Shown in pieces: positions 8,023 to 64,000 of a DNA stretch of 64,000 bases (positions within the stretch are counted from its first letter, which is position 1; every line of letters starts with the position of its first letter). This stretch comes from Escherichia coli (GTDB taxonomy: Bacteria > Pseudomonadota > Gammaproteobacteria > Enterobacterales > Enterobacteriaceae), in the NCBI RefSeq assembly GCF_013315695.1, contig NZ_CP054353.1. The stretch is one strand, 5' to 3'. Made by a program: the position numbers and the translations under genes. The notes beneath the pieces were generated by a model, which did not search any database, was not told the origin of the DNA, and saw only the letters and a list, made by a program, of their open reading frames with translations.

Positions 8023-8144
8023 GCATATTTCTTTCATGGGTAATTCTGATTATCTCCGTGCTTATGGCAATCGGCATTATGCGAATTATCTACACACTGA
8101 AGGATATCGAATTATTCTTTACCGGCGATAAACGCCGTAAATAA
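8019..8144 (+). CDS. small hydrophobic peptide (41 aa, MSIFLSWVILIISVLMAIGIMRIIYTLKDIELFFTGDKRRK), one predicted TM helix
   Basis: Below the ORF-track cutoff; ATGA-coupled to the upstream gene; single TM segment with basic C-terminus. Confidence 0.45.
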   Translation: MSIFLSWVILIISVLMAIGIMRIIYTLKDIELFFTGDKRRK

Positions 8145-8156
8145 AGCGAAAACCTT

Positions 8157-8252
8157 ATGAAGAATGTAAAAGCAATACTCACCATCGCCACTGTATGGGT
8201 GATATTTCAGGTGAGTGCGCTTATCTGGTTAGCCCTGAAGATCTGGGAATAA
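8157..8252 (+). CDS. small hydrophobic peptide (31 aa, MKNVKAILTIATVWVIFQVSALIWLALKIWE)
   Basis: Found by manual translation, 12 bp after the previous peptide; single TM segment; weak RBS. Confidence 0.35.
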   Translation: MKNVKAILTIATVWVIFQVSALIWLALKIWE

Positions 8253-8357
8253 CCTGAAGCCGAAAGCAGGCGCGGAATAACACCAGAAAACACACGAGCA
8301 ATTAATTAAGGCATTCATGCCTTCGGGTTCCCTTTGTCTTTTTTCAGGAGTCAACAA

Positions 8358-54877: not shown

Positions 54878-56599
54878 ATGCGCGCTTTGCTACCCTATCT
54901 GGCACTGTATAAACGTCATAAATGGATGTTAAGTCTTGGTATTGTGCTGGCAATTGTCACGCTGCTCGCCAGTATCGGTCTGTTGACACTTTCCGGCTGG
55001 TTCCTCTCCGCCTCAGCGGTAGCGGGGGTTGCCGGACTGTACAGCTTCAACTATATGCTACCCGCTGCGGGCGTGCGTGGCGCAGCAATCACCCGTACTG
55101 CCGGGCGCTATTTTGAACGTCTGGTAAGTCACGACGCGACTTTCCGCGTGTTGCAGCATCTGCGCATTTATACCTTCAGCAAATTGCTGCCCCTCTCCCC
55201 TGCCGGACTGGCGCGCTATCGTCAGGGCGAATTGCTCAACCGCGTGGTGGCGGATGTTGATACGCTCGATCATCTTTACCTGCGCGTTATCTCGCCGCTG
55301 GTGGGCGCTTTTGTGGTGATTATGGTGGTGACAATCGGGTTAAGTTTCCTTGATTTCACCCTCGCCTTTACGCTGGGCGGCATTATGTTACTGACGCTTT
55401 TCCTTATGCCACCACTGTTTTATCGTGCGGGAAAAAGCACCGGGCAAAATCTGACTCATCTTCGCGGGCAGTATCGCCAACAACTGACGGCCTGGCTGCA
55501 AGGGCAAGCTGAGCTGACCATTTTTGGTGCCAGCGATCGTTATCGCACGCAGTTAGAGAATACCGAAATTCAGTGGCTGGAAGCGCAACGTCGTCAATCT
55601 GAACTCACCGCATTGTCGCAAGCGATAATGCTGCTCATTGGCGCGTTAGCGGTGATCCTGATGCTGTGGATGGCGTCTGGCGGCGTTGGCGGCAATGCTC
55701 AACCCGGCGCGTTAATTGCCCTGTTTGTCTTCTGCGCGTTAGCCGCGTTTGAAGCACTGGCACCAGTAACGGGTGCATTTCAGCATCTGGGGCAAGTCAT
55801 TGCCTCTGCCGTACGGATCACTGACTTAACGGATCAAAAACCGGAGGTCACCTTCCCTGATACCCAAACTCGTGTTGCCGATCGCGTTTCGCTGACGTTA
55901 CGGGATGTTCAGTTCACTTATCCGGAGCAATCCCAACAGGCACTTGAAGGGATTTCTCTTCAGGTAAACGCCGGAGAACATATAGCGATTCTCGGGCGAA
56001 CCGGATGCGGCAAATCAACATTGTTACAACTGCTGACCCGCGCATGGGACCCGCAACAGGGCGAGATTTTGCTTAACGATAGCCCCATAGCCAGCCTGAA
56101 TGAAGCGACTCTACGACAGACCATCAGCGTTGTGCCACAGCGAGTGCATCTGTTTAGCGCCACGCTGCGTGATAATCTGTTACTCGCCTCACCTGGCAGT
56201 AGTGATGAGGCTCTGGCGGAGATCTTACGTCGCGTTGGTCTGGAGAAGCTGCTCGAGGATGCAGGTCTCAACAGTTGGTTAGGTGAAGGCGGACGCCAGC
56301 TCTCCGGTGGTGAACTGCGCCGTCTGGCTATCGCCCGTGCGCTGTTACATGATGCGCCGCTGGTATTGCTGGATGAACCTACAGAAGGCTTAGATGCCAC
56401 AACCGAAAGTCAGATCCTTGAATTGCTTGCAGAAATGATGTGCGAGAAAACGGTGTTAATGGTCACCCATCGACTTCGCGGACTCTCTCGTTTCCAACAA
56501 ATAATAGTGATGGACAACGGGCAAATTATTGAGCAAGGTACTCACGCAGAACTGCTTGCCAGACAGGGGCGTTATTACCAGTTTAAGCAGGGTTTGTAA
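54878..56599 (+). CDS. cydC: cysteine/glutathione ABC exporter subunit CydC
   Basis: 573 aa; ABC motifs (GRTGCGKST, LSGGELRR); coupled to cydD. Confidence 0.95.
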   Translation: MRALLPYLALYKRHKWMLSLGIVLAIVTLLASIGLLTLSGWFLSASAVAGVAGLYSFNYMLPAAGVRGAAITRTAGRYFERLVSHDATFRVLQHLRIYTFSKLLPLSPAGLARYRQGELLNRVVADVDTLDHLYLRVISPLVGAFVVIMVVTIGLSFLDFTLAFTLGGIMLLTLFLMPPLFYRAGKSTGQNLTHLRGQYRQQLTAWLQGQAELTIFGASDRYRTQLENTEIQWLEAQRRQSELTALSQAIMLLIGALAVILMLWMASGGVGGNAQPGALIALFVFCALAAFEALAPVTGAFQHLGQVIASAVRITDLTDQKPEVTFPDTQTRVADRVSLTLRDVQFTYPEQSQQALEGISLQVNAGEHIAILGRTGCGKSTLLQLLTRAWDPQQGEILLNDSPIASLNEATLRQTISVVPQRVHLFSATLRDNLLLASPGSSDEALAEILRRVGLEKLLEDAGLNSWLGEGGRQLSGGELRRLAIARALLHDAPLVLLDEPTEGLDATTESQILELLAEMMCEKTVLMVTHRLRGLSRFQQIIVMDNGQIIEQGTHAELLARQGRYYQFKQGL

Positions 56600-56640
56600 G
56601 CTATTATTGAACGATCCGACTTGCGTGGAGTTTTGCGGTC

Positions 56641-57345
56641 ATGCGCCTGGTTCAGCTTTCTCGCCATTCAATAGCCTTCCCTTCCCCGGAAGGCGCATTA
56701 CGTGAGCCTAACGGCCTGCTGGCACTGGGGGGCGATCTTAGCCCTGCGCGCCTGTTAATGGCTTATCAGCGTGGTATTTTCCCGTGGTTTTCTCCAGGCG
56801 ACCCCATCCTCTGGTGGTCGCCCGATCCTCGCGCGGTACTATGGCCTGAATCATTGCATATCAGCCGTAGTATGAAACGATTTCATAAACGCTCGCCCTA
56901 TCGTGTCACGATGAATTACGCCTTTGGTCAGGTCATTGAAGGCTGTGCCAGCGATCGCGAAGAAGGAACCTGGATCACGCGTGGCGTGGTCGAAGCCTAC
57001 CATCGTCTTCACGAACTCGGTCATGCCCACTCCATCGAAGTCTGGTGTGAAGATGAGCTTGTTGGCGGTATGTACGGTGTGGCCCAGGGAACACTATTTT
57101 GTGGCGAGTCCATGTTCAGCCGGATGGAAAATGCGTCTAAAACGGCGCTTCTGGTATTCTGTGAGGAATTTATCGGTCATGGCGGTAAACTTATCGACTG
57201 CCAGGTCCTTAACGATCACACAGCGTCGCTTGGTGCCTGCGAAATTCCCCGCCGGGATTACCTCAATTATCTCAATCAAATGCGCCTCGGACGATTGCCG
57301 AATAATTTCTGGGTACCACGGTGCTTGTTTTCACCACAAGAATGA
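56641..57345 (+). CDS. aat: leucyl/phenylalanyl-tRNA-protein transferase
   Basis: 234 aa; position between cydC and infA. Confidence 0.9.
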
Positions 57346-57625
57346 ATGTTTTCGGCACATTTCTCCCCAGAGTGTTATAATTGCGGTCGCAGAGTTGGTT
57401 ACGCTCATTACCCCGCTGCCGATAAGGAATTTTCGCGTCAGGTAACGCCTATCGTTTATCTCACCGCTCCCTTATACGTTGCGCTTTTGGTGCGGCTTAG
57501 CCGTGTGTTTTCGGAGTAATGTGCCGAACCTGTTTGTTGCGATTTAGCGCGCAAATCTTTACTTATTTACAGAACTTCGGCATTATCTTGCCGGTTCAAA
57601 TTACGGTAGTGATACCCCAGAGGAT

Positions 57626-57847
<222 letters not shown>

Positions 57848-57887
57848 TTGTTTTACCGCCTGATGGGCGAAGAGAAAGAACGAGTAA

Positions 57888-57915
57888 AAGGTCGGTTTAA
57901 CCGGCCTTTTTATTT
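57888..57915 (+). terminator. infA intrinsic terminator
   Basis: ggtcgg-tttaa-ccggcc hairpin plus T-run. Confidence 0.6.
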
Positions 57916-58100
57916 TGTGATATGTAGGAAGTACTTTGGAAGTATAAGTCCATAACTTGTCTCGATGTAGATATACTGCACAACTTGTTTACAGTATGAG
58001 CAAACAATAATTATCATTAAAATTCTTCTTGACCGTTTTACTCCAACTCCCTATAGTAGCGCCCCGTTGCCCCCCATGAGGTCAGGCAGCAAAACAATTT

Positions 58101-58188
58101 GGTGAGGTGTCCGAGTGGCTGAAGGAGCACGCCTGGAAAGTGTGTATACGGCAACGTATCGGGGGTTCGAATCCCCCCCTCACCGCCA
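58101..58188 (+). tRNA. serW: tRNA-Ser (anticodon GGA)
   Basis: 88 nt GGTGAGGTGTCCGAGTGG...GGTTCGAATCCCCCCCTCACCGCCA with long variable arm; anticodon loop cctGGAaag. Confidence 0.92.
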
Positions 58189-58202
58189 TATTCAAAGAAG
58201 AG

Positions 58203-58228
58203 CTCGTACGAAAGTACGAGTTTTTTTT
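58203..58228 (+). terminator. serW intrinsic terminator
   Basis: ctcgtac-gaaa-gtacgag hairpin followed by T8. Confidence 0.7.
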
Positions 58229-58238
58229 CGCATTTTAT

Positions 58239-58318
58239 CTGCCTGTACGGCAGTGAACGGTATAAAAATCGAGTTTTTCTTTCGGTTGGCTTTCTAAGCT
58301 GCCTGTACGGCAGTGAAC
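58239..58318. repeat. two copies of a 20-bp hairpin-forming motif (ctgcctgtacggcagtgaac) 60 bp apart
   Basis: Exact direct repeat in the serW-clpA intergenic region, each able to fold (ctgcc-tgtac-ggcag). Confidence 0.6.
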
Positions 58319-58529
58319 TCAAATACTACACGTTTAGCTCGTTGTTGATAAAGAAAAATCATCTCATTTTCCTGCCGCACCCTTTTTTATTCTTACCTTC
58401 CAGCACCATTAATTATCAACAACTTACCTTCACATCCAAAAATAGGGTTTTCACCGTTCCACCCTACAAACAAAAAGTCCGTAACCTCTTTCGAGATTAC
58501 GGACTTCACCAACCTACCTAACAATTAGA

Positions 58530-60806
58530 TTAATGCGCTGCTTCCGCCTTGTGCTTTTGTGCACTCTGGAATCCGTAAGTCAGCTCATTTTTCTCTTTAT
58601 CCAGCGCAACCGTCACCTGACCGCCGTCCACCAGCGAACCAAACAACAGTTCGTTGGCGAGCGGTTTTTTCAGGTTGTCCTGGATGACACGCGCCATCGG
58701 ACGTGCGCCCATTGCCCGGTCGTAACCTTTCTCGGCCAGCCAGTTACGCGCTTCCTGGCTCACTTCCAGAGAAACACCTTTCTGATCCAGCTGAACCTGC
58801 AACTCGACGATGAATTTATCCACTACCTGATGGATCACGTCGGTGGAGAGATGATCGAACCAGATAATGTTGTCGAGACGGTTACGAAACTCCGGCGTAA
58901 AGATCTTCTTGATCTCTTCCATCGCATCGGTGCTGTTGTCCTGGTGGATAAGACCAATCGATTTACGCTCAGTTTCTCGTACCCCAGCGTTGGTGGTCAT
59001 CACCAATACCACGTTACGGAAGTCCGCTTTGCGTCCGTTGTTATCGGTCAGCGTACCGTTGTCCATCACCTGCAACAGAATATTGAACACGTCCGGATGC
59101 GCTTTCTCGATTTCGTCCAGCAGCAGTACCGCGTGCGGATGCTTGATTACCGCATCGGTCAGCAGCCCCCCCTGATCAAAACCAACGTATCCCGGAGGCG
59201 CACCAATCAGACGGCTGACGGTATGGCGTTCCATATACTCGGACATATCAAAGCGCAGAAGCTCAATGCCCAAAGCTTTCGAAAGCTGTACCGTCACCTC
59301 TGTTTTCCCGACCCCGGTAGGGCCGGCAAACAGGAACGAACCGACCGGTTTATGTTCGTGACCTAAACCTGCACGCGCCATCTTAATGGCTTCAGTCAGC
59401 GCCTCAATGGCTTTATCCTGACCGAAGACCAGCATTTTCAGGCGATCGCCGAGGTTTTTCAGGGTATCGCGGTCACTCTGAGAAACACTCTTCTCTGGAA
59501 TGCGTGCAATACGGGCCACCACGGACTCAATATCCGCCACATTAACGGTTTTCTTGCGTTTGCTGACCGGCATCAGACGCGCGCGAGCGCCCGCTTCGTC
59601 GATAACATCAATCGCTTTATCCGGCAGATGACGATCGTTAATGTATTTCACCGCCAACTCTACCGCCGCACGCACCGCTTTTGCGGTATAACGCACGTCG
59701 TGGTGCGCTTCATACTTCGGTTTCAGGCCATTGATGATTTGAACAGTTTCTTCGATCGACGGTTCAGTAATATCAATTTTCTGGAAGCGACGCGCCAGAG
59801 CACGGTCTTTCTCGAAAATGTTGCTGAACTCCTGATAGGTTGTCGAACCAATTACGCGAATTTTACCGCTGGAGAGCAGCGGTTTGATCAGGTTAGCCGC
59901 ATCGACCTGGCCACCAGACGCTGCACCCGCACCGATAATGGTGTGGATCTCATCAATAAACAGGATGCTGTTAGTGTCCTGCTCCAGCTGCTTGAGCAAC
60001 GCTTTAAAACGTTTTTCAAAGTCGCCGCGATATTTTGTGCCCGCTAACAGAGAACCGATATCGAGAGAGTAAATCGTACAGTCAGCCATCACTTCCGGCA
60101 CATCGCCCTGAACAATTCGCCAGGCAAGACCTTCCGCAATCGCGGTTTTACCGACACCAGACTCCCCCACCAGCAGCGGGTTGTTTTTACGGCGACGGCA
60201 GAGAACCTGAATAGCACGCTCCAGCTCCTTCTCACGACCAATCAGTGGGTCGATTCCGCCCACTCGCGCAAGCTGATTCAGGTTCGTCGTGAAATTCTCC
60301 ATACGTTCCTCCCCACCAGCTTGTTCTTCGCTGTTTGGCTGGCTGCCAGGATCAGAAGACTGTGTCGGCTCGTCTTTACGCGTGCCATGAGAGATAAAGT
60401 TCACCACATCGAGACGGCTGACTTCATGTTTACGCAACAGATATGCCGCCTGCGACTCCTGTTCGCTAAAGATAGCGACCAGAACGTTTGCACCGGTAAC
60501 CTCATTGCGACCGGAGGACTGGACATGGAAGACCGCACGTTGCAGTACACGCTGAAAACTCAGCGTCGGCTGTGTGTCGCGCTCCTCTTCACTGGCAGGC
60601 AGAACGGGTGTGGTTTGTTCAATAAAGGCTTCCAGTTCCTGACGGAGCGCAACCAAATCCACAGAACACGCTTCCAGCGCCTCCCGGGCAGATGGGTTAC
60701 TGAGCAGCGCCAGTAACAAGTGCTCGACGGTCATAAACTCATGACGGTGCTCGCGCGCTCTGGCGAAAGCCATATTTAAACTGAGTTCCAGTTCTTGATT
60801 GAGCAT
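58530..60806 (-). CDS. clpA: ATP-dependent Clp protease ATP-binding subunit ClpA
   Basis: 758 aa from [22 protein letters not shown]; two AAA+ modules; ORF-track frame starts 5 codons upstream. Confidence 0.95.
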
Positions 60807-60836
60807 AGGCACCTCCCCCAATTTTTATGCCTGCAT

Positions 60837-61157
60837 TCAGGCTTTTTCTAGCGTACACAGCAATGGATGCTCATTCTCCCTCGCGTACTTGTTCACCATC
60901 GCCACTTTGGTTTCTGCAACCTCGGCGGTAAAGACTCCGCAAATGGCCTTCCCCTGGTAGTGAACAGCGAGCATCAATTGCGTTGCACGTTCTACATCAT
61001 AAGAAAAGAATTTTTGTAACACGTCAATAACAAACTCCATCGGAGTGTAATCATCATTGACTAATATCACTTTATACATAGATGGCGGTTTTAGCGCGTC
61101 GCGAACTTTTTCTTCCGCCAGTTGATCAAAGTCCAGCCAGTCGTTCGTTTTACCCAT
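60837..61157 (-). CDS. clpS: ClpA adaptor protein ClpS
   Basis: 106 aa [42 protein letters not shown]. Confidence 0.95.
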
Positions 61158-61779
61158 TGTCAGTTATCATCTTCGGTTACGGTTATCGGCAGAACGCCCT
61201 GCCGCTGACAAGAGCTTATTTGCCTGACCAATCTACTCCACATGATAGATAACTATCATTTATAACATCTCATTGATTAGTCTTTATTTTTCATTGTGTT
61301 ACAAATAACAGCTCTGTCAAAAACAGCGAAATTAACTACACCATTAACTACACCGTTTCACGAACAATATCGAACAACCACGAACAAAGATCAACACGCT
61401 TTAACCGTTATCATTTTCCGGCTATCCGTTATGAAGCTGGTGGATGTTCCCCGATATGGGGATCCCCACCTACCGGAATTTTTGCCAGGTTAAATGTTAA
61501 CCTCTGCCCTGTTAACATTTTTACCAAAAAGGTAGTTAACATTTTTTGCACGCAACCAGATGAATCATAAAGAAAAAATCAACAACAACGCTTCATCAGG
61601 CAGTTAACATGTTAACTACTACGAAACGGTAATTTTTTCTCTGCGTGAGAGGGGGCGCGGTGTCCAGCTTATTCGTTGTTCGTGGCTAACCACTCCCCCC
61701 CCATGCCGGATTTTTTTTCCGGTTAACTGTTAATCAGGCTGGTGGGTTTTACATACCCTTGATCACCGTAATGATGATC

Positions 61780-62000
61780 CAGATCTGCACATTTCCACCA
61801 ATGGTGGAAAAGCCCACAGCAGGCCGCCCAGCCTCCACCAATGGGGTAAAAGCATCAACCGTAACGAAAGTCGTTATGGTTGCCACCGATACCCCAAATT
61901 TGGGTATCACGAGTAAGCCCCAAAATCTGGGTGTTACTCTTACCACCCAAACTACGGGTAGTTTCCGTAGTTTCATGGTCGAGTTGCAGATCTGCAACTC
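61780..62000. promoter_or_regulatory. cluster of palindromic motifs (ccaccaatggtgg x2, acccaaatttgggt-like x3, tgcagatctgca)
   Basis: Several near-perfect 12-16 bp palindromes within 220 bp; the overlapping ORFs look non-coding. Confidence 0.35.
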
Positions 62001-62293
62001 CCCCATTAACCACAGGCGAATTTCCGCCTTCGGTCATTCCTTAATCATCTGCGTAATCATAATGATTATTCAGCAAGCGCAATTTTGCGCTTTGCTTAAA
62101 GTTCAGCGAGTTACCGCGCCGACTTCCTCAAATTGAGGTTTCCGAAAATATCAGCGGGTTAGCGATTAAGCTGATCATTAATTAAACTGCGAAAATTTCG
62201 TAGTTTGTGACTGTCTTTCAGGCAGCTTGTTAACAGTCCTCAGAAGCGAGGGATGTAGCCACCCATTTTTGGTCCGTCGGGAATATCAACCAG

Positions 62294-62575
62294 TTACCGC
62301 CGCAACCGCTCCGGCTTCTTCCAGTGGTACGTTATTTTCTCCTTCTCCCGATACATCTCCACGCGGCGACGGTAGGCCAGCAACTCAAGAACTCTGGTTC
62401 GTATGTTGCGCATATCCACGCCATTAAGTTCTATACCATCACGGCGCATCACCTCCGCAACAACACGCGCATAATTTTCAGCGGTCACGCTGTCCGGCTG
62501 CGTGGCCTGTTCGTCAACCTGCTGGCTGATTCCGGCAACGCGGCGGATTAATCCCAGTATTTCGGCTTCTGTCAT
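62294..62575 (-). CDS. hypothetical protein (93 aa, MTEAEILGLIRRVAGISQQVDEQ...)
   Basis: ATG-initiated ORF with protein-like composition; my hand count places the ATG one base from the ORF-track start. Confidence 0.45.
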   Translation of the reverse strand: MTEAEILGLIRRVAGISQQVDEQATQPDSVTAENYARVVAEVMRRDGIELNGVDMRNIRTRVLELLAYRRRVEMYREKEKITYHWKKPERLRR

Positions 62576-62610
62576 TGTGCCCCCATCGTTCTGATAGTCT
62601 GGTGTCGTCG

Positions 62611-63210
62611 GGTCCTTCCTGGAATTATGGCCCGTTACGGGGCGGCGACCTCGCGGTTTTTCGCTATTTATGAGATTTTTTGAGGGGGTGGTTGTTGTTT
62701 AATTGTTTGGTATATCTAATTGATAAGTAAGGTAAAAATAAAATAAATACAACAACCTTACGATGTATTTTGATGTCATTAATGTGAAAAAATTCAATGA
62801 TATCAAATGGTTTTGTAAAAACACATGGTTGTTGTATCGCGTATTTGATGGCGTAACAGAAAGTGATTTTTAACTTTACCGCTCTGTAACTACGGATTAT
62901 TCCATGCTGGCACGGAGAACGGCTACGGCATGACGCCACCCAGCCTATACAGCACAGTAAAGCCGATAAATTGTTAATCACGCGCAGCAATGCGTGTGAT
63001 TTTTGCACACTTCCGGTTAACGGGTACGATGTCCGGTTTTAGTGTCTGTTTTTTGCGCATGTCCGGTTCATAGAAAGCATGTTTTTATATTTTTCATATG
63101 GTTAACTTGCAGAGAAACCGGACATGGATCCCGGAAAATTTTCATAAATAGTGAAAACGCGCGAGGTCGCCGCCCCGTAACGGGTCCATATGCCGGAAAG
63201 GACCCGTAAA
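62611..63210. repeat. ~50-bp imperfect inverted repeats (25-bp perfect core cccgttacggggcggcgacctcgcg / cgcgaggtcgccgccccgtaacggg) flanking a ~500-bp AT-rich segment
   Basis: Left arm 62611-62660, right arm 63157-63210 in reverse complement; interior holds atgtccggtt repeats and no convincing ORF. Confidence 0.7.
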
Positions 63211-63232
63211 AAAAAGCCGGATTTCTCCGGCC
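63208..63232 (-). terminator. intrinsic terminator for the minus-strand operon (gccgga-tttct-ccggc plus T8 on minus strand)
   Basis: Hairpin immediately after the 137-aa gene stop, followed by a T-run on the transcribed strand. Confidence 0.65.
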
Positions 63233-63237
63233 TTGTC

Positions 63238-63651
63238 TCAGATGGTTTTCAGTATGCGATCGATGTCGCCGTCATCGCCCTGGTTTCTGCCATCGTACGC
63301 CATGCCAGCTGATACGGCTTGCGGGCTGTGCATGTCCATAAAGTTTTCAAAGGCTGCGGTAAGCTCTGGTGCAACCTTTGGGCGCTCCTGCTCTATGGTC
63401 ATGTTCAGGATTTCACGAGCATTATCGACGCTAATACATGGCACGTTTGCCATTGCACGTAACAGCGGCTGATAGTCGTTATGTTCATGAAGCGCCATAA
63501 TCGCATCAGCGCGCGGCTTGTCCTGTTCTTCCAGTTTGTTGAGTTGATATACGGCCTCGTAGGTTGATAAACCTCTGTCAGCCATTGCCCGCGCTTCTGC
63601 TTTAAATTTACTCGCCAGCGGTAGCGCCATGATGCTTTCATTCGTTGCCAT
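63238..63651 (-). CDS. hypothetical protein (137 aa) co-transcribed with the decoration-protein homolog
   Basis: ATG with AGGGGAAA RBS 12 bp after the upstream stop; terminator follows. Confidence 0.6.
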   Translation of the reverse strand: MATNESIMALPLASKFKAEARAMADRGLSTYEAVYQLNKLEEQDKPRADAIMALHEHNDYQPLLRAMANVPCISVDNAREILNMTIEQERPKVAPELTAAFENFMDMHSPQAVSAGMAYDGRNQGDDGDIDRILKTI

Positions 63652-63663
63652 CGTTTCCCCTGC

Positions 63664-64000
63664 TTATCGCGCCAGCGGCTGAACGGATACGCCAGAACCC
63701 GCAAAGGCGGCGCATTTTTTCGCGTCAGTGTCGGCGCTCTCAGGCCAGTTTACGGCGGCGATATTAAATATCCCCGTCTTGTAACACTGTGCTGATTTCT
63801 GCTTTGACGTGTCCACGGGGTACGAAGTCAGATAAACAGCCTTGCCAGATTCCTGACCATCCCACGGCTTAAACTCGCCATTGTCCGCCAGCATCAGCGG
63901 GGTAAATTCCTGAATAACGCCAGCATCAGCGGCAAAATGTACCAGCGTCGTGGATACCTGCTGACTGCCTGCAAATAACTCAATGTATGGAGTGTCCATA
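63664..64000 (-). CDS. phage head decoration protein, lambda gpD-like (5' end outside window)
   Basis: TPLMLADNGEFKPWDG...YKTGIFNIAAVNWPESADTDAKKCAAFAGSGVSV aligns with recalled lambda gpD (TPLMLD...WDG...[35 protein letters not shown]). Confidence 0.65.
   Translation of the reverse strand, partial: MDTPYIELFAGSQQVSTTLVHFAADAGVIQEFTPLMLADNGEFKPWDGQESGKAVYLTSYPVDTSKQKSAQCYKTGIFNIAAVNWPESADTDAKKCAAFAGSGVSVQPLAR

Follow-up and report, generated by a model that had tools for sequence, protein, structure and literature searches.

In Escherichia coli K-12, cspD lies 323 bp from clpS with only the small open reading frame (ORF) yljB in between, and the question raised by the present locus is what has taken its place. 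The sequence analysed is a 64,000-nt stretch of contig NZ_CP054353.1 (assembly GCF_013315695.1), hereafter the window, numbered from its first base, which carries clpA (58530-60821) and clpS (60837-61157) on the minus strand and contains no CspD-like ORF (best tblastn match across the window, E = 6.9). A sequence-only reading of the window had already pointed out the missing ORF and the proximity of the two genes in K-12, and had supposed that a phage-derived insertion, possibly a satellite, stood where cspD is expected. Comparison with other genomes bears this out, an insertion displacing cspD. Window 61243-64000 is the integrase-distal, or packaging, end of this insertion, and the whole element is very probably a phage-inducible chromosomal island (PICI) of about 11.2 kb, of the EcCICFT073 family, that would be packaged through the terminase of a helper phage, this degree of confidence covering identity and mechanism together. 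It is a known kind of satellite, in a variant without the packaging gene rpp.

The left boundary of the insertion is marked by a 17-mer, as far as which K-12 remains collinear with the window and beyond which the two sequences diverge:

61243-61259, no strand assigned: attachment (att) core of the left junction, TGATAGATAACTATCAT, breakpoint between K-12 and the window

K-12 possesses one core only, overlapping the yljB stop codon. Megablast of window 60800-64000 against a reference set of 5,426 complete E. coli genomes retrieved two genomes, CEA601S and NCTC9112, matching this query end to end at 99.8% identity, and the CEA601S copy is 99.9% identical to window 61101-64000; statements on the full copy rest on the 43-kb CEA601S locus (L001). 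In this locus, a second copy of the core, TGATAAATAACTATCAT, is located 11,181 bp off and abuts yljB-cspD. The insertion, 11,181 bp between two 17-bp cores, is thus placed 86 bp upstream of clpS and has pushed yljB-cspD 11.2 kb away. Because the integrase of the element is joined to yljB-cspD in 364 of the 5,426 genomes, clpS/cspD can be considered a common site for such islands.

Beyond position 64000, the near-identical genomes contain the integrase, primase and capsid genes that an element of this kind should have. On the minus strand and from the cspD side, L001 encodes a tyrosine integrase (412 aa, phrog_1, outside the window), an AlpA-type regulator, an Icd-like protein, a DUF4222 protein, a 710-aa DNA primase (phrog_1139), a single-stranded DNA-binding protein (SSB, phrog_44), a PerC-family regulator, a 68-aa ORF, a 351-aa major capsid protein, a 111-aa decoration protein, a 137-aa protein and a 93-aa protein; a 69-aa helix-turn-helix protein of the locus corresponds to phrog_2790/66 (excisionase and transcriptional regulator). 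The CEA601S copy is complete, with zero pseudogene flags and its annotated genes intact. According to the annotation, this 11.2-kb copy has no portal, protease, large terminase, connector, tail, lysis or cI/Q gene, and because it lacks portal, protease, large terminase, tail and lysis genes it represents a satellite rather than a prophage. It combines an att-flanked integrase, AlpA and primase genes, a small size (about 10-15 kb in this class) and lambda-type cos sites, all characteristic of Gram-negative PICIs; of the gene for the Rpp protein, whose retargeting of the helper is the characterised packaging mechanism of EcCICFT073, 22 codons are left. The PerC-family regulator gene is located past the window (L001 24730-24978), and EcCICFT073 encodes one too; among the members of the PerC family are activators of virulence genes in pathogenic E. 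coli.

The sequence-only reading had considered the make-up of the island unusual, a view that does not hold, since the order of its genes (int, alpA, primase, SSB, PerC, capsid, decoration, 137 aa, cos, cos, 93 aa) is that of EcCICFT073, the prototype Gram-negative PICI; a capsid homolog (c1499), a decoration homolog (c1500) and a pair of cos sites had already been published for it in 2018 (PMC6092414). The homologs of the capsid module (c1499, c1500) and of the 137-aa and 93-aa proteins share 91-94% nucleotide identity between the two islands. They differ in their integration site, EcCICFT073 adjoining phoQ in CFT073 and the window element being located at clpS/yljB, and in the segment separating their cos sites. 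Experiments on helper-dependent induction and transfer concern EcCICFT073 only.

Among the palindromes previously noticed in the window, which are indeed present, a cluster of hairpins at 61740-62060 is described below, and a 72-nt inverted repeat (62609-62680 / 63135-63206), 83% complementary, corresponds to two convergent packaging sites. In each arm of the repeat, a cosQ-like GGGTCCTTYCYGG is followed by the cohesive-end 12-mer of lambda, GGGCGGCGACCT, in its exact form; the 12-mer is found in only two copies in the window, in opposite orientation. The components of the two sites are the following:

62609-62680, plus strand: lambda-type cos on the side of the 93-aa gene, with cosQ at 62610-62622 and the 12-mer at 62640-62651
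62681-62835, plus strand: cosB of the 93-aa-side cos, with three copies of GGTTGTTGT (62690, plus; 62749, minus; 62827, plus)
62941-63134, minus strand: phage-type cosB of the 137-aa-side cos, with three copies of AACCGGACAT (63116, plus; 63059, minus; 63029, minus)
63135-63206, minus strand: lambda-type cos on the side of the 137-aa gene, with the 12-mer at 63164-63175 and cosQ at 63193-63205

The 93-aa-side cos, whose cosQ and cosN align with those of lambda, occupies the position of cos2 of EcCICFT073. Its cosB contains three of the six GGTTGTTGT copies of the window (0.73 expected window-wide) and is 73-75% identical to the cosB located upstream of a gene resembling that of the small terminase subunit (TerS) in the PICIs of strains SCU-106 and UM146. 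The 137-aa-side cos stands where EcCICFT073 has its rpp-proximal cos1, and the exact 10-mer AACCGGACAT, present three times in its cosB, occurs nowhere else in the window. In both sites the first repeat is an R-like site by position, spanning bp 51-59 (GGTTGTTGT) or 51-60 (AACCGGACAT) from the cohesive end; R3 of lambda is found at bp 50-65 from this end (PMC9026076). A convergent cos pair is also present in EcCICFT073, SCU-106, UM146, NCTC86 and 2012C-4221, and experiments in EcCICFT073 demonstrated two functional cos sites (PMC6092414).

In EcCICFT073, rppA (c1503) is located 102 bp from the cohesive end of the 137-aa-adjacent cos, which is the published layout of the functional cos1. RppA binds the TerS of the helper and redirects it to the cosB of the island, and was reported to be essential for packaging and interference (PMC6739421); Rpp is found in many E. 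coli PICIs, although not in all of them. The window copy has neither rppA nor its cosB, and tblastn with RppA and with its NCTC86 homolog retrieves only the end of the gene (residues 123-144, 73-82% identity), and the 11-kb element contains no further sequence resembling Rpp, Nu1 or TerS:

62879-62944 (approximate), minus strand: rpp remnant, last 22 codons

Along its first 100 bp from the cohesive end, the adjoining 137-aa-side cosB shares 97% identity with the cosB that sits just upstream of Nu1 in the lambdoid phage PhiR12_1; when cosN and cosQ are included, the identity is 94% over 184 bp. It is also 98% identical to the 93-aa-side (cos2) cosB of EcCICFT073, so that the PhiR12-type cosB is rpp-proximal in the window and distal in EcCICFT073. 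Judging from these alignments, the Rpp-specific cosB has been replaced by a phage-type cosB. Recombination fits this replacement better than a simple inversion between the cos sites, which was rejected as the source of the swapped cosB because the rpp remnant keeps its normal orientation. In strain 2012C-4221, a 69-aa ORF (L009 2715-2924) joins roughly nine initial codons of a PhiR12-type Nu1 to a part of Rpp (residues 78-128). This independent recombinant, a visible scar of phage-PICI recombination at the cos locus, shows that exchange with a phage cos occurred more than once at the rpp spot. Moreover, the rpp-less cassette recurs with 97-99% identity in PICIs that differ in their integrases and replication genes and are inserted at thiM/rcnR and at yejO/tRNA-Pro, which argues for a cassette in circulation rather than a single dead end. 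A literature search on PhiR12 phages gave nothing relevant.

Other members of the family contribute further observations on these sites. The cosB of EcCICFT073 cos2 (L006 CFT073 8074-8339) is itself 97% identical to that of PhiR12_1 (L003 5001-5184), while the 2018 study found no phage cosB in the island (PMC6092414). On the basis of this similarity, cos2 may be a true helper-type cos for the PhiR12 phage group, which would explain why two cos sites are kept by the family. The PICIs of SCU-106 and UM146, inserted at the same clpS/cspD site, share with the window element the att core, integrase, arm repeats, capsid module and convergent cos (89% identity between SCU-106 and window 61101-62681). 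They differ by a Nu1-like TerS between their cos sites and by a distal cosB 74% identical to that of CFT073 phage 4. Such a full-length Nu1-like TerS stands in place of Rpp in three loci (L004 16007-16549, L005 15589-16130 and L016 3054-3596); it has 180 aa and 34% identity with lambda Nu1, follows a GGTGGTGGTGG-type cosB and is frameshifted in UM146 (L005). With the Nu1-like TerS, Rpp and rpp-less forms, at least three packaging solutions occur in one inter-cos slot. The TerS-like protein of SCU-106 was considered as a candidate Rpp and set aside, being a full-length Nu1 homolog without any match among PDB sequences.

The decoration gene belongs to a capsid operon, of which the window contains the following part:

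63664-63999, minus strand: gpD-like head decoration protein, homolog of EcCICFT073 c1500 (phrog_49, E = 4e-27)
63238-63651, minus strand: 137-aa Nu3-like scaffold-domain protein, homolog of an unnamed EcCICFT073 ORF between c1500 and rppA/c1503
63234-63213, minus strand: terminator-like hairpin at the end of the capsid operon (9-bp stem with 5 G-C pairs, then a T run)

The decoration protein shares 37% identity with lambda gpD (E = 7e-14). Its seeming isolation from any major capsid gene, from which the sequence-only reading had drawn the idea of an unusual island, is an effect of the window edge: the window stops at the decoration start codon, and in CEA601S and NCTC9112 the gene for a 351-aa major capsid protein (43% identity with lambda gpE) is reached about 13 nt past base 64000, only 12 nt separating its end from the decoration gene downstream. 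The minus-strand operon that had been proposed retains the decoration gene, the 137-aa ORF and the hairpin, which lies 4 nt downstream of the 137-aa stop codon and whose T run extends into cosQ; the 93-aa gene falls outside it, separated from the capsid operon by the terminator and the two cos sites.

Besides belonging to phrog_1999, the 137-aa protein resembles the C-terminal portion of phrog_53, the head maturation protease family (E = 7e-10). With hhalign, the profile of its family could be aligned to P0041, a protein of 195 aa (probability 96.7%, E = 3.5e-10), which in turn matches lambda Nu3 (E = 2e-16) and scaffold/capsid-assembly PHROGs. The sole tblastn match in the phage collection is in the lambda-like phage 204576, between an S49 protease fragment and a gpD-like gene. 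No match was found in Pfam, NCBIfam or PDB sequences, and a word-based homolog search returned close relatives only; the direct comparison of the protein with lambda Nu3 was weak, BLASTP giving no significant result, and Foldseek searches of PDB and BFVD with its AlphaFold2 model (pLDDT 74) gave nothing at E < 1. The link to Nu3 rests on PHROG cross-hits and on phmmer and hhalign comparisons by way of P0041, from which we conclude that the 137-aa protein is a two-repeat homolog of the Nu3 C-terminal domain, and the island therefore has capsid, decoration and scaffold-domain homologs. The name of head-tail connector given to this protein by PGAP in some genomes was rejected in favour of this relatedness to the Nu3 scaffold domain.

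Between the 93-aa-side cos and the att core, the island contains a single recognised gene and a succession of repeats:

62294-62575, minus strand: 93-aa conserved satellite protein (phrog_1561, unknown function, E = 3e-57)
61740-62060, no strand assigned: cluster of 8-9 hairpins or palindromes (minimum free energy -142 kcal/mol on the minus strand and -119 kcal/mol on the plus strand)
61492-61700, minus strand: GTTAAC-rich region, homolog of the HNH-terS intergenic (cos) region of Shiga toxin (Stx)-type phages, 76-80% identity
61361-61387, plus strand: three CGAACAA with 10-bp spacing, second array of arm-type repeats, repeated at the other end of the element
61332-61354, plus strand: two TTAACTACACC, candidate integrase arm-type sites, found as a tandem pair inside each element end

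Profile searches, which connected the 137-aa protein with a Nu3-like domain, assigned the 93-aa protein to phrog_1561 without a function. This protein has no match in Pfam, NCBIfam, PDB sequences or PADLOC, its AlphaFold2 model consists of three helices (pLDDT 63), and it has about 1,000 homologous matches, the best 120 of which are all at least 88% identical. ORFs within 61296-62136 and 62664-63008 have no PHROG match, and those of 61296-62136 no PADLOC match either; both segments were treated as non-coding on account of the missing PHROG matches. Whereas the 3' end region of PICIs, where the hairpin cluster is located, often contains defence genes (PMC11364771), the 3' accessory region of the window copy contains no recognisable gene. 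A related island in strain EC190486 (L016 653-5138) bears an abortive-infection gene in this region and is itself lodged in a lambdoid prophage, within the major capsid gene, so that its layout is that of a helper-embedded PICI.

The direct repeats reported in the sequence-only reading were all recovered (attaactacacc twice at 61332-61354, cgaacaa three times at 61361-61387 and gttaacattttt twice at 61511-61546), and are more frequent than chance would predict; two of these arrays have a counterpart at the integrase end. The motif TTRACTACACC has four matches in the 43 kb of L001 (0.8 expected), all on one strand and forming a tandem pair within either element end, and CGAACAA is repeated at the other end as two copies with 10-bp spacing (L001 31531-31547), its order relative to the TTAACTACACC pair being kept. 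Since the arrays recur in one order and orientation just inside both ends, they are both candidate arm-type sites, which would bind the integrase or excisionase.

The next segment could be related to packaging. GTTAAC occurs six times inside 232 bp, and nine of the 25 sites of the window fall in 61496-63106. Over about 175 bp, this array resembles (76-80% identity) a segment without coding sequence that is found in 94 phage records, including BP-4795, YYZ-2008, Stx1a, Stx2c and Stx2a phages and PPompW prophages. In BP-4795, the matching segment sits between the HNH endonuclease gene and terS, and in phages with an HNH-dependent cos, the cos site is located between these two genes. By this homology, 61492-61700 would be the diverged packaging region of a second helper type and possibly a third packaging site of the island. 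It is largely missing from CFT073; its PICI-type copy is found in 49 genomes and its phage-type copy in about 1,140. The neighbouring hairpin cluster folds far more stably than shuffled sequences (z = -8.5 and -9.0 on the two strands). Its modules are mosaic and present in 940 of the 5,426 genomes, including at the ends of elements resembling capsid-forming PICIs (cf-PICIs), and have no Rfam, PHROG or PADLOC match; considered as a structured RNA, the cluster shows ambiguous covariation, since in the most divergent copy (74% identical) two hairpins are kept, one of them by compensatory change, and two are broken.

The flanks of the island present two further features. Just inside its end, a promoter-like site on the minus strand (61293-61320; TTGACA, 16-nt spacer, CACAAT; 10/12 matches) is directed toward clpS, and the insertion may, to judge from this site, alter what drives clpS-clpA. 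Between serW and clpA, at 58231-58318, there are two repeats of the CRISPR-DR4 type (Rfam RF01317), of which one exceeds the gathering score; the corresponding infA-clpA interval of UM146 contains a full type I-F cas operon with a CRISPR array on either side. The Rfam scan of 56000-64000 (E <= 1) detected serW and the CRISPR repeats only, and none of its matches is in the element.

From this composition, the life cycle of the island could be the following. A lambdoid helper phage would trigger its excision, by Int and AlpA, and its replication, by the primase and SSB; the helper terminase would then cut and package multimers of the island, with four to five units per phage-sized head, four units amounting to 44.7 kb and five to 55.9 kb, against 54.4 kb for PhiR12_1. 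As Rpp is missing, specificity must come from a cos recognised by the helper, and most likely the helper's own TerS would recognise the copied PhiR12-type cos, as in P4 and SaPIbov5. These two satellites likewise copy the cos of their helper without a redirecting protein, a strategy described in the introduction of a preprint on cf-PICIs (10.1101/2022.09.08.507074), and the likeness lies in the inferred mechanism only: their gene content and helpers are unrelated, whereas the window element keeps a PICI backbone and the capsid, decoration and scaffold trio, and has two or perhaps three types of packaging site. With cf-PICIs of the EcCIEDL933 type, the island shares the int-alpA-rep backbone, and its 93-aa gene and hairpin module are also found after terL in the cf-PICI-like elements of FORC_042 and KL53. 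However, cf-PICIs encode portal, protease, connectors, HNH, TerS, TerL and their own capsids, none of the portal, protease, connector, HNH, TerS and TerL genes being annotated in the full copy of the window element.

Several readings of this island have to be weighed. An ordinary lambdoid prophage whose capsid operon merely continues upstream would fit with the capsid gene directly upstream and the lambda-type cos, and a P4-like satellite with the Icd-like gene and the primase, but both are highly improbable. The distance from att core to att core is 11.2 kb, and homologs of E, D and the Nu3 domain only are present where a prophage has about 40-60 kb of complete modules; the size and the missing morphogenetic and lysis genes refute a prophage for the near-identical full copies. 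As for P4, psu, sid, delta and epsilon were not found by PGAP or in PHROG scans of 15 of the 17 ORFs, no dedicated psu or sid HMMs being run. Capsid remodelling, suggested by the sequence-only reading, would mean that the gpE-, gpD- and Nu3-like proteins of the island form small or chimeric shells on the portal of the helper. Three shell components are encoded (the capsid and decoration homologs and the Nu3-domain protein) and their genes are conserved across the family, yet genes for a portal, a protease, a large terminase and connectors are all missing from the island. When lambda served as the helper of EcCICFT073, only phage-sized DNA was packaged, and deletion of c1499 or c1500 left interference and transfer unchanged (PMC6092414). 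Remodelling is thus unsupported for the prototype with this helper, and we consider it unlikely for the window element.

Two further readings concern the present state of the island, and neither is more than a minor possibility. In the first, it would belong to a functional, circulating lineage that has dispensed with retargeting by Rpp and carries the packaging sites of several helper lineages, namely the PhiR12-type cos, the second cos with its triple-repeat cosB and the diverged HNH-dependent Stx-type cos region. Several points weigh against the main reading, of a PICI packaged through the terminase of a helper. RppA was reported to be essential for the packaging of EcCICFT073 (PMC6739421), so an rpp-less island is possibly non-mobilisable. 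CEA601S holds no second copy of the PhiR12-type cosB, the inter-cos segment is found in only 13 of the 5,426 genomes (at least 80% coverage), and the window stops at 64000, the remainder of the element being deduced from near-identical genomes. There is no lambda-type helper in the window, where the other prophage is P2-like and was ruled out as a helper, having no lambda cos. This P2-like prophage, presumably the first phage element of the sequence-only reading, occupies 4338-43150 as a ~38.8-kb insertion relative to CEA601S, between dmsA and serS, and its genes include an integrase, a gpA-like replication nickase and a portal/terL and scaffold/capsid/terS arrangement.

The main rival is that of a decaying and immobile PICI, in which rpp and its cognate cosB were lost and the cos sites, the Stx-cos homolog and the hairpins are debris. 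Such decay is possible and would account for the reduction of rpp to a 22-codon remnant, for the mosaic region between att and the 93-aa gene, where no gene is recognisable, and for the rarity of the cassette (13 genomes). It is less easily conciliated with the annotated genes of the full copy, all of them intact, with the exact cosN and cosQ kept by both cos sites, and with the three exact phage-type R-like sites on the 137-aa side and the three exact GGTTGTTGT copies at lambda-like positions on the other. The cassette, moreover, keeps 97-99% identity across at least three chromosomal sites and among isolates from humans, yak and chicken, and its distribution over these sites and hosts therefore indicates a recent horizontal spread. 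We regard decay as no better than a doubtful explanation, at the same tentative level as a functional lineage with several helpers.

The presence of a PICI at a common att site explains the "missing" cspD, which is a routine matter for annotation. With the Nu3-like 137-aa protein, such islands have a scaffold homolog besides the capsid and decoration homologs published in 2018. As a natural rpp-less version of the EcCICFT073 family, the island offers a test of whether Rpp is always indispensable or only with lambda and phi80 as helpers. The match between the dispensable cos2 of EcCICFT073 and the cos of a real phage group, PhiR12, suggests why two cos sites were kept. If the reading of several helpers is true, unrelated temperate phages, including Stx phages, could mobilise the island and suffer no interference from it, and if Stx-type phages can use the third cos-like region, PICIs would move more widely among Shiga-toxin-producing E. 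coli than has been supposed.

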